From Longimicrobiales bacterium (GTDB taxonomy: Bacteria; Gemmatimonadota; Gemmatimonadetes; Longimicrobiales; Gaopeijiaceae): a DNA stretch of 64,000 bases. Below the pieces are notes generated by a model. It was not told where the DNA came from and ran no database searches. It saw nothing but the letters and a program-made list of their open reading frames with translations. Both the position numbers and the translations under genes were made by a program. Below, one piece after another: positions 40,343 to 49,307 of the stretch. Position 1 is the first letter of the stretch, and each line of letters begins with the position of its first letter. The stretch spans positions 2,336,001 to 2,400,000 of the forward strand of contig OZ241892.1 of assembly GCA_965203485.1 (NCBI GenBank), written 5' to 3'.

Positions 40343-42184
40343 ATGATGCGGCAAATGCGGGAACACACGAAGTGGATCATGCTCCTGGCGATGCTCGCCT
40401 TCGGGGGTCTGATGTTCTTCGAATGGGGGATGGACATCACGGGCCAGACTTCCGGCGGCTTCGGCGAGATCGGGAGAGTGAACGGGACGCCCGTTCTGTA
40501 CGACCAATACATGGCGACGTACCGAGGCATCTACGATCAGGTGCAGGCGACGCAGGAAGAGCCCGTCACCAACGCGCAGAACCGCGAGCTCGAGGACCAG
40601 GCATGGAACCAGACCGTGGACGTCCTCCTCGTCCAGCAGGAGCTGGAGCGGCGCGGGATTCTGGTGACCGACGAAGAAGTCGTCGCCATGGCGCGGGCCG
40701 CCCCGCCGCCCGAGCTGATGTCCACCCCGGCGTTCCTCACCGACGGGCGGTTCGACCAGACGAAGTACCTGCGCTTCCTGGACAGCGCCGACCCGGAAGT
40801 TCTGTTGCAGTTCGAAGCGTACTACCGCGACCAGATCACGCGCATGAAGCTCTTTCGCCAAGTGACCCTGGGCGTGCACGCCTCGGACGCCGAGCTCTGG
40901 AGGAACTACCGGGACGCGAACGAGACCTCGTCCGTCCGCTACGTGACGTTCGACCCCCTGGTGCGGGTCGCCGACGACCAGATCGACGTCACGCAGGAAG
41001 AGGTGTCGCGCCATTACGCCGACAACCGGGAGGACTTCGCCACGCCCGCCACCGCCCGGATCGTTTCCGTCGTGCTGTCGAAGACGCCCACGCCTGCCGA
41101 CACGGCCGCGACCTTCGAGCGCGCGCGGGCAACGCTGGACGAGCTTCGCGGCGGCGGAGACTTCGCCGAGATCGCCCGGCGGGAATCCGCCGACCCGGGA
41201 TCGGCGGAGGCCGGGGGCGACCTGGGCGTGTTTCCCAAGGGCCGGATGGCCCCCGCGTTCGACTCGGCCGTCTTCGCCGCCCGGCTGAACCGCCCCGCCG
41301 GGCCGGTGCAGACCGAGTTCGGCCTCCACGTCGTCGAAGTCGAGGACCGTTGGGGGCAGGACTCCGCCCGGGCCCGCCACGTCCTGTTGCCGTTCGAGCG
41401 GACGGACGAGTCCGAGATCGCCATGCTGGGCGCCGCCGACTCGCTGGAAGCTCTCGGCGAGATCATGCCGCTCGGCGAGGCGGCGGCGGCACTGGGACTC
41501 TCCGCCGACACGCTGGAGATCATCGAGGCGCGGCCGCTGGCGCCGGGCGCCGGAAGCATCGCGGAAGGCGGCGAGTGGGCGTTCGAGGCCGAGACCGCGC
41601 CCGGCGACGTGAGCCCGGTCTTCGAGAACCGCGCGTCGTTCTACGCGATCGAACTGATGTCGGTGGACCCGGCGGGCTACGTCGCCGCCGATGAAGCGGA
41701 GCCCGCCATTCGCCAGACGCTGGGATTGCGAAAGAAGCTGGCGGCCACGATCGAGGAGGCCCAGGCGCTGGCCGAAGAGATCGGGGCCGGGCGCCGGCTG
41801 GCCGACGTCGCCGCCGAGGCCGGCCTGGAGGTCCGCGAAGCCGGACCGTTCACGCGCAACGACTTCGTGCCGGGCCTGGGCTACAGGACCCCGGCGGTGG
41901 GCACGGCGTTCGGCATCGGAATCGACGAAGTGTCGGAACCGGTCGAGTCGAACCAGAACGTGTTCTTGCTGGAGCGCACCGTCTCGGAAGCGGCCGACAG
42001 CGCGGCATGGGAGGCGCAGGCCGACGCGCAACGGGCGGAAGTCGTCGCGGCCGCGCGCGGCATGCGGATCGAACAATGGCTGGCAGCGCTGCGAGCCGCG
42101 GCGGACATCGTGGACCGCCGGGAGGAAGTGCTCGCGCCGCCCGACGAGAACGCCGCCGCGCCCGGCCTGCCGCCCGTCTTCTGA
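40343..42184 (+). CDS. SurA-N/parvulin peptidyl-prolyl isomerase (PpiD-like)
   Basis: N-terminal TM, SurA-like domain, FAEIARRES.D...GGDLG, TEFGLH. Confidence 0.88.
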   Translation: MMRQMREHTKWIMLLAMLAFGGLMFFEWGMDITGQTSGGFGEIGRVNGTPVLYDQYMATYRGIYDQVQATQEEPVTNAQNRELEDQAWNQTVDVLLVQQELERRGILVTDEEVVAMARAAPPPELMSTPAFLTDGRFDQTKYLRFLDSADPEVLLQFEAYYRDQITRMKLFRQVTLGVHASDAELWRNYRDANETSSVRYVTFDPLVRVADDQIDVTQEEVSRHYADNREDFATPATARIVSVVLSKTPTPADTAATFERARATLDELRGGGDFAEIARRESADPGSAEAGGDLGVFPKGRMAPAFDSAVFAARLNRPAGPVQTEFGLHVVEVEDRWGQDSARARHVLLPFERTDESEIAMLGAADSLEALGEIMPLGEAAAALGLSADTLEIIEARPLAPGAGSIAEGGEWAFEAETAPGDVSPVFENRASFYAIELMSVDPAGYVAADEAEPAIRQTLGLRKKLAATIEEAQALAEEIGAGRRLADVAAEAGLEVREAGPFTRNDFVPGLGYRTPAVGTAFGIGIDEVSEPVESNQNVFLLERTVSEAADSAAWEAQADAQRAEVVAAARGMRIEQWLAALRAAADIVDRREEVLAPPDENAAAPGLPPVF

Positions 42185-42229
42185 CGCCGCGCGCGGGCCG
42201 GGACGCCGGCGAGGAGCCGTTGCTCCGCC

Positions 42230-42721
42230 TCAAGTAGCCTGCAGCGCCTTGCCGGCCTCCTCCCAGCTCACGTCCGCCTCCCAAGTCACTTTCACGGCTC
42301 CTTCCAGGCTCCGGGCGGTCGGGCACTTGCGAGCGTGCGTCTCGAGCGCGCGGTCGACTTTCTCGCGCGGCGTGCCCGCCGGAACGCGGATCGCGTAGCG
42401 CACGTGGATCCCGGTCAGCGTCACGACCCGGTCCAAGACTTCGTTGACGCCTTCGGCCCGCGCGCTCAGGGCATCGGCCGCCGTCGGGATCCCGCGCACT
42501 TCCAGTGCGCCGTTGAGGGTCCCGAGCAGTCAAGCGGCCGCCGCCGCGACCAAGTAGTCGACGGGCAACGGCAGATCGGGCTCGGCGTCGAGCCGGTAGT
42601 GCGCCTTGACGGGGCCATGGACGCCGAACTCGATCGCCGTGCCGTCGGCAAGGGCCGCGCGACGGCGCACGCCCTCGGTCTTGGAGACGCGGGCGCGCGC
42701 CGTGTAGAAGGGCTTGCTCAC
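42230..42721 (-). CDS. OsmC/Ohr-like protein, probable selenoprotein (UGA = Sec64)
   Basis: PVDYLVAAAAA-TGA-LLGTL stays in frame to KCPTARSL; GGAGG RBS; SECIS-like hairpin after TGA. Confidence 0.8.
42484..42525 (-). promoter_or_regulatory. Putative bacterial SECIS element
   Basis: mRNA UCGGGACCC-UCAACG-GCGCACU-GGA-AGUGCGC-GGGAUCCCGA; G-containing apical loop 26 nt after UGA. Confidence 0.7.
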
Positions 42722-43068
42722 TCTGATTCCTCCGGGTTGCATGGTAGTCCGAACAGCGCCGGGTTCGCCGGCTCGATGAACACGTTCATGACGCCCCCGC
42801 ACACGGCGGGACTCCAGGACGTGAAGTCGTCGGTGAGGTCGATGCGGACGACCGCGGGCGGCGCGCCGCGGAACAGCTTGCGTGCCGCGGCCACGACCTC
42901 GCCTTCGCCGCATCCGCCCCCGATGGTGCCGGCGACGACGCCGCGCTCGCCCACCAGCATCGCCGCCCCAGTCTTGCGCGGCGTGGAGCCCCGCGTCGAA
43001 ATCACCGTCGCCAGCACCGCAGGCTCGCCCAGTTCGGCCAGCCGCGCGAACACGCTTCTGTCGCTCAC
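42718..43068 (-). CDS. Stand-alone XdhC/CoxI domain protein
   Basis: GSTPRKTGA, GTIGGGCGE, VCGG. Confidence 0.88.
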   Translation of the reverse strand: MSDRSVFARLAELGEPAVLATVISTRGSTPRKTGAAMLVGERGVVAGTIGGGCGEGEVVAAARKLFRGAPPAVVRIDLTDDFTSWSPAVCGGVMNVFIEPANPALFGLPCNPEESE

Positions 43069-43964
43069 CGGACGGCCGCCGCCTGCCCCGCCGGGCCGTC
43101 TTGGACTCCGAAGTAGCGCTCCACGACGCGCTCCTTTTGCGACAGGGGCACGCCGGTGCCAGCGTGTCTGAACATTACGATCTCGGCGGCGACCGAAATC
43201 GCGATCTCCGCGGGCGTCTGTCCGCCCAGGTCCAGGCCCACCGGCGCGCGGACGCGCAGGAGGTCGCAGGCGGCGAAGCCGTCGCGAACCAGCTGCTCGT
43301 GCGTGGCCCGCACGCGGCGGCGGCTGCCGATCATCCCGACGTAGCCGGGGCCGTCCCGCATTCGAAGCAGGCGAATCAGGCACTCGTAGTCGAATCGGTG
43401 CCCGCGGGTCACCAGCACGACGTGGTCGGCCGGGACCAGCTGCGTGTCGGCAAACGGGTCGCGGAAGTCGACCACGCGGACGGCGGACGCCTCGGGAAAC
43501 CTGTCCGGGCTGGCGAACTCCGGGCGGTCGTCGAGCACTTCGACCCGCAAGCCGAGCATGGCGCCGCACCGGCAGAGGGGCCGCGCCACGTGGCCCGCTC
43601 CCACGACGACCATGCGCGGGGGCGGCGCATGCACCTCCATGTACACGACCGCGCTCGCGGCGCCCCCCGGGGCCGCGAACCGAAACTTCTTCGCGACGGC
43701 GCCGGAAGCGACCCGGCCGGGGAAGACGTCCGGCAACGCCCGCGACACGGCGTCGTCGAGCGACGGATGGCCCAGCGTGCCCTCCGCCCGGTCGCCCGAG
43801 CGCCACGAACGCTTCCCGACGATTCGCCCGTCGGCGGACTCGGTCACCACCGCCGTGACGATGCGGTTTCCTCGAGCGACAGCGTCCAGGACCGCAACCG
43901 CGGCGTCCGCCGCCGACACCGCCTCGCCCCGAGCGACGCGCGGCCCGCTCCACCGCCCGTTCAC
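43065..43964 (-). CDS. XdhC family protein (Rossmann C-terminal part)
   Basis: VGAGHVA, DDRPEF, TRGHRFD, YVGMIGSRRR, PVGLDLGGQTPAEIA. Confidence 0.9.
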   Translation of the reverse strand: MNGRWSGPRVARGEAVSAADAAVAVLDAVARGNRIVTAVVTESADGRIVGKRSWRSGDRAEGTLGHPSLDDAVSRALPDVFPGRVASGAVAKKFRFAAPGGAASAVVYMEVHAPPPRMVVVGAGHVARPLCRCGAMLGLRVEVLDDRPEFASPDRFPEASAVRVVDFRDPFADTQLVPADHVVLVTRGHRFDYECLIRLLRMRDGPGYVGMIGSRRRVRATHEQLVRDGFAACDLLRVRAPVGLDLGGQTPAEIAISVAAEIVMFRHAGTGVPLSQKERVVERYFGVQDGPAGQAAAVR

Positions 43965-44619
43965 TCGCTCGGTCCTTCGCCGTGGGAGCCGAAGCGACGG
44001 CGGTACGCCTCCGGCGTGTCCAAGTCGTCCAGGATGGCGTCGTCCCGCACGACCACTTCCAGCACGCGGCCGGGATCGCGCCGAATCACGGTGCGCGCGC
44101 CTTCCGCCAGTCCCTCCTCGAAGAACTCGTCGGCGATGCGCATGTCGGCGAGCGCCGGATGGCCCCGCCGGCACCCGCGGCGCGGCACGACGGCCGCCGC
44201 GCGCGTCTTCCGCCATGCGGCCACGACGGCTCGCACCGTGGCGACCGCCACCGCTGGATTGTCGACGGGCGAGAAGACCACCGCGCCCGGCGGCTCGCGC
44301 GCTTCGCGAAGGCGGGCCAAGCCCACACGCAGCGAGCCGATCTGCCCGCCCTCGCCGCGCGGGTTGACGACGACCGAGCCGCCGGCCTGCGCCACTTCCT
44401 CCTCCAGCTCGCGCCCGGCCGCGCGCGCCACCACCAGAACCGGCGCGCAACCGGCCTCCGCCAGCGTCCCGGCCAACCGGGCCGAGAAGGACCGGCCGCC
44501 GGCGTCGAGGCCCGCCTTGCACGCGCCCATGCGGCGCGACCGGCCTGCCGCCAGCACCAAGCCCGCCACGCCGGGCTCGGATCGCCGGGCCGCCTCGACG
44601 ACGTCCGAGCGTCCAGCCG

Positions 44620-44623
<4 letters not shown>
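43961..44623 (-). CDS. Mo-cofactor cytidylyltransferase-like NTP transferase (MocA/YgfJ)
   Basis: LAAGRSRRMG..K, PVDNP, RGHP, DLDTPE. Confidence 0.85.
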
Positions 44624-46824
<2,201 letters not shown>

Positions 46825-46864
46825 CCGAGGACTCGCGCGACCGCGCCCCGGTGCGGGAACTCGC

Positions 46865-47638
46865 CTAATAGATCGGCCTGACCTCCGCGGTCGACCGCGA
46901 CAGGGTGATGGTCGCGGGCATGCCTCGCACTAGGGGAAACTCCCGGTTCCAGTACCACTCTTCGCTGGCCACCTCGCGGCGCGCGTAGACCCAGTAGTTG
47001 CCGGGCGCCACCCTGAAGAACGCATTTCCGTCCACGTCGGTCGTGTCCGCATGCACGTCGAGCCCGGACGCGGCGATCTTGGCCGCGACTACTTCGTTCC
47101 AGTCCTGGAAGGCGTCGTCTTCCCAGTTCTCCTTCGCCACGCTCATGCTGTCCAGCCGGTCCGTCGCCGCCGCCTGGAGCGACTCGAAACGGGAGAAGAG
47201 CGACTGGATCCGCGAGTCGAGCCGTTCGTACTCCGCATGCTTCTGCTGGTGCTCGCGGAACAACGTGTTGTACTCCCGCGTGCGCCTGTTGAGTCCCTCC
47301 ATGCGGTCGCTGAGCCTCTGCAGATCGTCGCGCAACGCGTTCCAGCGGGCTTCCGCGTCCGTCCAAGCCTGCCGCGCGGCTGCGATTTCCTCTTGGGCGG
47401 CGGCGAGTTCGGGCGGCATCTCCGGCTCCGGAGTCGGGAAGGCCTGCGCGAGAGAGTCGAACACCCCGTCCCGGTCGTAGGGCAACAGCTGGACCTCCAC
47501 GTCCGCTACTCCGACGGGCTCGCTGCCGTCCTCTCCTCCTTCTACGACCTGGACCGAGCCCTCGCCGGGGCCGCATGCGGCGACCGCCGCCGACACAAGG
47601 GCCAGGCCCGCGACCGAGCCGATGCCGCTTCGCTTCAT
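46865..47638 (-). CDS. Hypothetical lipoprotein with coiled-coil insert
   Basis: Lipobox VAAC; GGAGGAG RBS. Confidence 0.75.
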   Translation of the reverse strand: MKRSGIGSVAGLALVSAAVAACGPGEGSVQVVEGGEDGSEPVGVADVEVQLLPYDRDGVFDSLAQAFPTPEPEMPPELAAAQEEIAAARQAWTDAEARWNALRDDLQRLSDRMEGLNRRTREYNTLFREHQQKHAEYERLDSRIQSLFSRFESLQAAATDRLDSMSVAKENWEDDAFQDWNEVVAAKIAASGLDVHADTTDVDGNAFFRVAPGNYWVYARREVASEEWYWNREFPLVRGMPATITLSRSTAEVRPIY

Positions 47639-47852
47639 CTGTCTCCTCCATGAGGGAACCGACCGTGGCGCCGGGACACGCGCCCGACACGCCCAATCCT
47701 ACAACGATAAGAACGGAAAAAGAAGCAGACAAGGCTCGACCGCGCGGGCGCCCCTGCGAGAGCGCCACATCGACCGAGCCCCTGCCCCGGGGCGCCGTGC
47801 TCGACGCCAAAGAGCCCAGCGGGTCCGCCACCGCGCCCGAGAACATTCGGAC

Positions 47853-49307
47853 TCAGCGCGCCGGGGCGCCGTACTCGACGCGGAGGACCAAGCGCGCAGT
47901 TCGGCCGACGCGGGCGACCTCTTCGGGGCTGGGCGCCGGGCCGCCTCGGACGAGCGCCAAGACCTGGGCCGGCGTGGCTCCGCGCAGCAACGCGTCGGCC
48001 GCCGTCGCGGCCGCCACGGCCGGGTCGGCGACCGCTTGGCTCCGCTTGCTCCGCGCGGCACGCAGAAGAGCCGCAGGTCCCCTGCCGAGGCCGTCCAGGG
48101 TGGGCGCGGCCAGCGTCTCGGCGATACGGGCTTCCCATGCCCGCGCGGCCTCGGGAGATGCGGAGAACTGGACGAGAAGGCGGCCGGCCGGACCGACTTC
48201 CGCGGAGAAGCCGTACACGGTGTCGTCAAGGCGGCGTTCGGTGCGCAGGGCGAGCAGGGCCCGCAGGAAGTCGGCCTGTTGCAGGGTAGTTCCCGGGGCG
48301 AGTTCGAACGCCAGCCCGACCCACGTGGTCACGACTTCCGCGGGCTGCGCGACGCTGACGAGCCCGGCCGGCGCCGTCGTCCCGTGCCCGGACGGCAGGA
48401 CGAATGGCGGGCTGTCCGTCTCCGGCGGCCCGACCGGCCCGCCGACGGGACTCGGAAGGCCGGGGCGCGGGCCGTCCGCGACCACGACCCATGCGGGCAT
48501 CCCCCAAGCGGTCGCGGGCGCCGCCGAGGCGGCTTCCAGCAACGCGGCGCTCGGCGCCTCGTCGGTTGCCGCGCCGACGGCGCTTGCGGTTGCGGCAGCG
48601 CTCGCCGAGTCTCGGGCCGACTCGTCCACGGGGTCCGCCGGTTCGTCGGCGAGCCCCAGTCCGCCGGGTCCCGCCGCACTCAAGCGGGCGGCGAAGAGTT
48701 GCTCGAATCGGTCCTGCGGCGAGCCCTCGCGGAACTCGCGCACCTCGAACGCCCGCGCCATGGCGGATTCCACGTGCCCATGCGGCAACGGTCCGCCCGC
48801 CACGCGCCGCATCACGCCGAGGACGTCGGCAAGATCCTCGGGACGCGCCGTGGCGACGAAGTAGCGCCCCGTTCGCGTGCGGACGGCCTCGACGCTCGCC
48901 GCCACCCCCCCTGCGGCCTCGCGGAGCGCGGCCAGGAACGCCAAGTCCGCGATCCTCGCGGCCGCTAGGTCCCCGGGCGCGAGCGACGCCGAGACGGGAA
49001 GCGCCACGACAACCGCCCCGACCGGCGCCCAGGCGCGCACAACCAAGAGAGGCTCCTGCTCGGACGGCGGCGGACAAGCGCGGCGCTCCCCTTCCCGGGC
49101 GTCCCGGCCGGCCGGGACGCCCGCAGCGCACTCGGGCCGGACAGCGCCCGCGCCGGCTCCCTCGCCGTCCGTCGGCCGATCTTGCCCGGCGTGGCCGACT
49201 TGCGCCGCGGCTTGCGGAGGCCCCGCGGAAGCCGGCTGCCATGTCGCGGTCGCAAACGCGGCCAGCAGAACGATCCTGCGACGCAACGCCGTGTCCGCGC
49301 GGGTCAA
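47853..49307 (-). CDS. Exported M16 peptidase-like protein, degenerate
   Basis: Signal-like N-terminus, weak insulinase-like pattern, no HxxEH; coupled to upstream gene. Confidence 0.45.
   Translation of the reverse strand: MTRADTALRRRIVLLAAFATATWQPASAGPPQAAAQVGHAGQDRPTDGEGAGAGAVRPECAAGVPAGRDAREGERRACPPPSEQEPLLVVRAWAPVGAVVVALPVSASLAPGDLAAARIADLAFLAALREAAGGVAASVEAVRTRTGRYFVATARPEDLADVLGVMRRVAGGPLPHGHVESAMARAFEVREFREGSPQDRFEQLFAARLSAAGPGGLGLADEPADPVDESARDSASAAATASAVGAATDEAPSAALLEAASAAPATAWGMPAWVVVADGPRPGLPSPVGGPVGPPETDSPPFVLPSGHGTTAPAGLVSVAQPAEVVTTWVGLAFELAPGTTLQQADFLRALLALRTERRLDDTVYGFSAEVGPAGRLLVQFSASPEAARAWEARIAETLAAPTLDGLGRGPAALLRAARSKRSQAVADPAVAAATAADALLRGATPAQVLALVRGGPAPSPEEVARVGRTARLVLRVEYGAPAR

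Follow-up and report, generated by a model that had tools for sequence, protein, structure and literature searches.

The minus-strand gene run fadJ, mocA, xdhC(C), xdhC(N) and osmC, located in a 64,000-nucleotide stretch of a Longimicrobiales genome (contig OZ241892.1, positions 2,336,001 to 2,400,000; hereafter the window), is probably an ordinary mixed operon: a mobile gene for an OsmC-like selenoprotein would have joined it in the ancestor of the genus, probably with no specific partnership between its product and the XdhC proteins. The locus most likely encodes a genuine selenoprotein of an already known kind and reflects a gene move at the level of the genus rather than a new module. The initial annotation had proposed a candidate module in which the selenoprotein could be a carrier of sulfur or selenium or a thiol-redox partner, and had named lack of linkage beyond close relatives as the outcome that would speak against it. 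The neighbourhood survey showed exactly this genus-only linkage (the xdhC link is present in 3/3 genomes of the genus, and in 0/22, 0/80 and 0/80 loci of the three samples from outside it), and operon coincidence, the alternative that the annotation had also considered, fits best given that limited range. The locus adds one member to a clade of selenoproteins that curated models overlook and whose genes a standard reading truncates at the TGA; it also documents a split, reversed XdhC across the order.

Organization of the operon

The 4-nt overlaps between successive genes from fadJ to osmC, as well as the gene identities and the split of XdhC, had been called from the DNA alone. All four overlaps were recovered at their places on the minus strand (ATGA at 44620-23, GTGA at 43961-64, 43065-68 and 42718-21), and the identities were borne out by family scans and by the tiling of the two XdhC halves on full-length 2WE7, on which the N half covers residues 15-111 and the C half residues 117-378 (Table 1). 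The mocA product matched NTP_transf_3 and scored 98.6 bits for MocA vs 34 bits for MobA, both below the cut-off (186 for TIGR03310).

Table 1. Features of the fadJ-osmC run (positions in the window).
Feature	Position	Strand	Description
osmC	42230..42721	-	protein of OsmC/Ohr fold, 163 aa with the TGA taken as Sec; Pfam OsmC 54 bits
hairpin	42494..42510	-	7 bp, GGA loop; starts 19 nt past the TGA; likely SECIS
in-frame TGA	42530..42532	-	residue 64; likely selenocysteine codon
xdhC(N)	42718..43068	-	XdhC_CoxI, 116 aa, with Cys53 and Cys90
xdhC(C)	43065..43964	-	middle domain and Rossmann XdhC_C, 299 aa; precedes the N half
mocA-like	43961..44623	-	predicted molybdopterin nucleotidyltransferase, 220 aa
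fadJ-like	44620..46824	-	enoyl-CoA hydratase / 3-hydroxyacyl-CoA dehydrogenase, FadJ/FadB-like by family scan

Overlaps of 4 nt are a habit of this lineage and are no more than expected here. An in-frame start codon allowing such an overlap, which is all that these counts record, exists in 21/26 relatives for mocA>xdhC(C), in 10/19 for fadJ>mocA, in 12/16 for xdhC(N)>DUF402, and in 27/51 for a small Cys-rich ORF that precedes osmC elsewhere. In the two other genomes of the genus, a 4-nt overlap joins xdhC(N) to osmC, but not xdhC(C) to xdhC(N). Because 4-nt coupling is common across the lineage, the coupling in these genomes is no evidence of shared function. A scan of positions 41900-48200 returned zero promoters and zero terminators, a result that the GC-rich DNA makes uninformative, and an Rfam scan of the window gave zero matches. 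Upstream of fadJ lies a 257-aa ORF (46865-47638, minus strand), lipoprotein-like at its start and coiled-coil-like in its middle, that matches no family above cut-off; it stands upstream of fadJ or mocA in 12/13 fetched loci of the family.

Range and history of the osmC-xdhC linkage

In all three genomes of the genus (3/3), osmC follows xdhC(N); their osmC sequences are 77-80% identical and the xdhC(N)-osmC junction keeps its 4-nt overlap in each of them, while the gene after osmC differs (here surA, which the matching loci in the other two genomes lack). Among the 22 other orthologues from the order, none had xdhC or mocA within 1.5 kb; upstream of them were a small Cys-rich ORF (21 loci) and pgeF (20 loci). 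Neither xdhC nor mocA was found within up to 5 kb of osmC in 80 genome loci, the best 80 of at least 565 relatives, nor beside osmC in the best 80 of 104 metagenome loci, which were found with a paralogue query, belong mostly to the paralogue clade, and span at least 4 kb in 40 of the 80 cases. The metagenome neighbours comprised 74 ORFs from 45 lineages and were of many unrelated kinds. Among the genome loci, those with other neighbourhoods (Palauibacter, Acidobacteriota) were screened with a set of chosen queries. Of 30 loci from the phylum, only two had xdhC, both from this genus.

The survey from the side of xdhC gave the same picture. Twenty of the 54 xdhC loci were fetched, two of them from this genus, and in none of the 18 others did osmC follow xdhC. 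Among the 54 genomes that bear xdhC, 31 had no osmC orthologue, including 12 with selA, although incompleteness of genomes weakens single absences. One family had xdhC and a Mo-hydroxylase in 12/12 genomes, with no selA match and no osmC orthologue.

The small Cys-rich ORF is the most widespread partner of osmC, and a functional link is more plausible for it than for XdhC. It is about 60 aa long with several cysteines, lies between pgeF and osmC and often overlaps osmC by 4 nt (e.g., L033:1034-1219, minus strand); it has no Pfam or NCBIfam match, was also present in 31 of the best 80 genome loci (of at least 565 relatives), and tblastn did not find it in this genome.

We built a quick tree of 116 rows with SH-aLRT support and without bootstrap, excluding rows shorter than 120 aa, duplicates, the frameshifted locus L034 and two distantly related OsmC proteins. 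The three xdhC-linked osmC proteins formed one clade (SH-aLRT 96) nested in a 29-row clade (SH-aLRT 86), whose other members stand mostly beside an msrA block; this larger clade is in turn surrounded by pgeF-linked rows, and the paralogues stand separately. The distance from osmC in this genome is 1.08 Mb for pgeF and 0.49 Mb for the msrA block. Together with the nesting in the tree, these distances suggest that osmC has likely moved at least twice and that the xdhC slot is the latest. The slot is one that DUF402 holds in relatives (DUF402 follows xdhC(N) in 11/13 family relatives and in 5/5 sister-genus genomes), and DUF402 was not found in this genome. We also considered a local deletion that joined osmC to a nearby xdhC, and rejected it: between 83 kb and 1.7 Mb separate the two genes in 5/5 sister genomes.

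The mocA and split-xdhC cassette and its probable Mo enzymes

The conserved unit of the operon is likely mocA plus the split XdhC, serving two Mo enzymes encoded elsewhere in the genome. In 25/25 relatives' loci across the order, the split of XdhC falls after its first domain and the halves stand in reversed order; both Cys53 and Cys90 of XdhC(N) are kept in 25/25. XdhC_CoxI proteins that stand alone are common: at E<=1e-10 there are 1832 clusters of 63-203 aa, some of which are perhaps contig fragments. In 18/18 fetched loci outside the genus mocA, xdhC(C) and xdhC(N) occur together, one N half being 3.4 kb off. Upstream of mocA, fadJ is found in 12/13 family relatives; this functionally unrelated gene is more widely linked to the mocA-xdhC cassette than osmC is.

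As the initial annotation had stated, there is no Mo-hydroxylase subunit in the window; the large-subunit family has two matches in the genome, about 0.74 and 1.0 Mb from it. Its view that MocA and XdhC act on enzymes of this kind agrees with the presence of two Mo-hydroxylase operons and moaA elsewhere in the genome. One Mo enzyme, at genome position 3.12 Mb, is HcrA-like (881 bits, cut-off 995), and a second member of the family lies at 3.38 Mb. The HcrA-like operon (genome 3121197-3124144) is closest to 4-hydroxybenzoyl-CoA reductase, and its 2Fe-2S subunit is 86-90% identical in the sister clade.

In the literature, MocA is described as making MCD, and XdhC as holding Moco during sulfuration by a cysteine desulfurase and then inserting the cofactor (PMC2997495). 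By homology, the mocA and split-xdhC cassette would mature the cofactor of Mo-hydroxylases encoded elsewhere: MocA would make MCD, and XdhC would hold the cofactor for sulfuration by the desulfurase and would then insert it, the probable clients being the HcrA-like enzyme at 3.12 Mb and the second family member at 3.38 Mb. The two XdhC halves may rebuild one chaperone. Cassettes of xdhC and mocA that stand away from their enzymes are described for B. subtilis pucAB, Arthrobacter and Oligotropha (PMC2997495); the present one shares with them the co-location, the probable service in trans and a conserved XdhC cysteine, but differs in that XdhC is split with its halves reversed and in that fadJ leads the operon in one family.

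The OsmC-like protein and its possible functions

The read-through product of osmC has Sec64 in the peroxidatic position and Cys133, 69 residues further on, in the resolving one, and a structure model of it forms one OsmC domain (pLDDT 93.8), with OsmC/Ohr proteins as the top Foldseek matches (E about 4e-9). Arg20, His35, Asp55 and His129 are invariant; Arg20 is at the start of strand 2 in the model. The protein shares with Ohr/OsmC peroxidases the fold and the two catalytic positions, and its invariant Arg20 lies near the site of Arg19 in Ohr (PMC5384416, PMC5962072). These peroxidases use a catalytic Glu and Cys (Glu51/Cys61 in Xylella Ohr; PMC5962072), whereas Val54 and Sec are found here: in alignment with 1UKK, Val54, ten residues before Sec64, falls at the first Glu of NPEE and replaces the catalytic Glu, and the next residue is the invariant Asp55. 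The protein thus has the features that define the Ohr/OsmC superfamily (the fold, and two catalytic Cys/Sec residues about 60 residues apart) and lacks the one that marks the subfamily of proven peroxidases (a Glu ten residues before the peroxidatic Cys). Judged on its sequence, it is an Ohr-like protein as defined in PMC5384416. Not all proteins of this kind are described there as proven peroxidases, and one showed no peroxidase activity (PMC5384416).

The loss of the catalytic Glu leads us to consider peroxidase activity only somewhat more probable than its absence. With similar confidence, the product may be a general selenol-based reductase of peroxides or thiols; the msrA, doxX and bacilliredoxin genes that neighbour osmC in the sister clade are consistent with this. 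In such a scheme the OsmC protein would act as a dimer, in which Sec64 would reduce a hydroperoxide and form a selenylsulfide with Cys133, to be recycled by a dithiol.

It might be argued that the move was selected, the selenoprotein of the genus having been co-opted to serve XdhC(N), either by keeping Cys53 and Cys90 reduced or by relaying persulfide sulfur from the desulfurase. We regard this as unlikely. In its favour, the coupled xdhC(N)-osmC junction persists in all three genomes of the genus despite the differing downstream gene, both XdhC(N) cysteines are conserved in all 25 relatives, the role of the XdhC cysteine is described as unresolved (PMC2997495), and the OsmC-like protein, lacking the catalytic Glu, may have a function other than that of a peroxidase. 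However, the 22 + 80 + 80 other loci have no xdhC link, the same split XdhC with its cysteines occurs in the 31 of 54 genomes without an osmC orthologue, and fadJ, coupled to the same degree, has the wider linkage. In R. capsulatus, moreover, NifS4 binds XdhC directly and no carrier is described in the available text of the two sources (PMC2997495, PMC13653126). If true, the co-option would provide a testable partner for the XdhC cysteines and tie selenoprotein chemistry to Moco sulfuration.

Two other cases in which osmC lies near genes of the xanthine-oxidase family also speak for co-option. In the sister genus, the HcrA-like Mo gene is 6.1-8.4 kb from osmC in 5/5 genomes; a random gene would be equally near a Mo gene about 2% of the time, a figure to be read in the light of the fact that this is one inherited event, noticed after several candidate neighbours had been tested. 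Five or six unrelated genes stand between osmC and the Mo operon (brxA, doxX, DUF1707, a channel gene, msrA and often a PALP enzyme gene, the last on the strand of osmC), and the Mo operon points away on the other strand, an arrangement that argues against co-option. The 2Fe-2S gene of an HcrA-like Mo-hydroxylase was within 5 kb in 10/80 genome loci (the best 80 of at least 565). In the second case, a paralogue osmC is directly upstream of xdhAB on the same strand (L224, L226), in one lineage of 45. At these loci (L226:5001-10405 and L224) the paralogue osmC(Sec) precedes xdhA-xdhB and, on the same strand, a guanine-deaminase-like gene (named from its sequence), and msrPQ-like genes were observed nearby on the other strand.

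The missing peroxidase Glu and the nearness to xanthine-oxidase-family genes in three separate settings lead to a more specific proposal, namely that the Sec-bearing Ohr-like protein acts in Moco sulfuration as a selenium-based relay of sulfur or as a redox guard, and that in this genus it was recruited for the XdhC(N) cysteines. This is a speculative reading, to which we give slightly less credence than to co-option in general; it would make the protein the first selenoprotein partner of XdhC and offer a handle on the role of the XdhC cysteines. In the text of the open-access literature, supplements aside, we found no paper joining OsmC with XdhC, and nothing on XdhC in Gemmatimonadota or on operons of OsmC, xanthine dehydrogenase and MocA.

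It is very improbable that the selenoprotein supplies labile selenium to a selenium-dependent molybdenum hydroxylase. The marker of the labile-selenium trait is described as SelD, YqeB and YqeC together (PMC9312934). The genome resembles those with the trait in having selD, mocA-like and XdhC-like genes and Mo-hydroxylases, and osmC lies beside mocA and xdhC, but its enzymes are HcrA-like, and the co-occurrence that the initial annotation had suggested checking was incomplete: selD is present, while yqeB and yqeC were not found in this 95%-complete single-contig genome, in which the positive controls matched, and the trait is therefore unlikely. Furthermore, both Mo enzymes are far under the cut-off of the model for Se-dependent XDH (347 and 153 vs 830 bits), and the Sec system accounts for selD. 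The mixed operon joined by a mobile osmC remains the preferred reading.

The probable selenocysteine codon of osmC

The TGA of osmC very likely encodes Sec, as judged from comparison of the sequences, in agreement with the initial annotation, which had called the gene osmC(Sec). The column of codon 64 holds TGA in 104/104 orthologue loci and a stop in 80/80 metagenome loci (the best 80 of 104), the halves of osmC on either side of it are conserved across both sets, and distant OsmC proteins have Cys at this column. The pairing of the downstream hairpin is kept in 98.8% of 420 cells (60 sequences), compared with 16-71% for slid controls, and the fold of the hairpin region has a z of -2.1. Covariation was confined to one pair, where 10 cells show a double change from A-U to G-C, and is support rather than proof because the sequences of kin are not independent. 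The genome encodes tRNA-Sec, selA, selB and selD. Among 61 genomes 25 have an osmC orthologue, and selA is present in 23 of these; the two without selA are 78% and 88% complete. That the TGA is a real stop, with osmC broken or made up of two small genes, has next to no probability: DNA searches gave no Cys-bearing member of the osmC clade, as this reading would have it, but the codon at the catalytic column with conserved halves on both sides, the covarying hairpin, the presence of selA in nearly all orthologue genomes and the predicted folding of the read-through protein as one OsmC domain all oppose it.

OsmC-like selenoproteins were reported in 2005 from the Sargasso Sea survey (COG1765, PF02566, motif UxxT; PMC1088965) and are still included in current lists (PMC13188914, PMC9312934). 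The protein described here shares with them the OsmC fold, a Sec where the first catalytic Cys would stand and a hairpin past the UGA, but its motif is U-L-L-G-T (UxxG) rather than UxxT, and it scores 33.6 bits against NF041052, for which the cut-off is 95.

A paralogue of osmC elsewhere in the genome (3181783-3182256, plus strand; 42% identical) belongs to the broader paralogue clade, has no NCBIfam match at 1e-5 and has an in-frame TGA at the corresponding position. In the osmC orthologue of one relative (L034, G029:C49) there is an apparent frameshift near residue 116-119, which may be an assembly error or a sign of decay. A single in-frame TGA occurs close to the start of the selD gene (genome 2795274-2796197), which is what a Sec-containing SelD would show.
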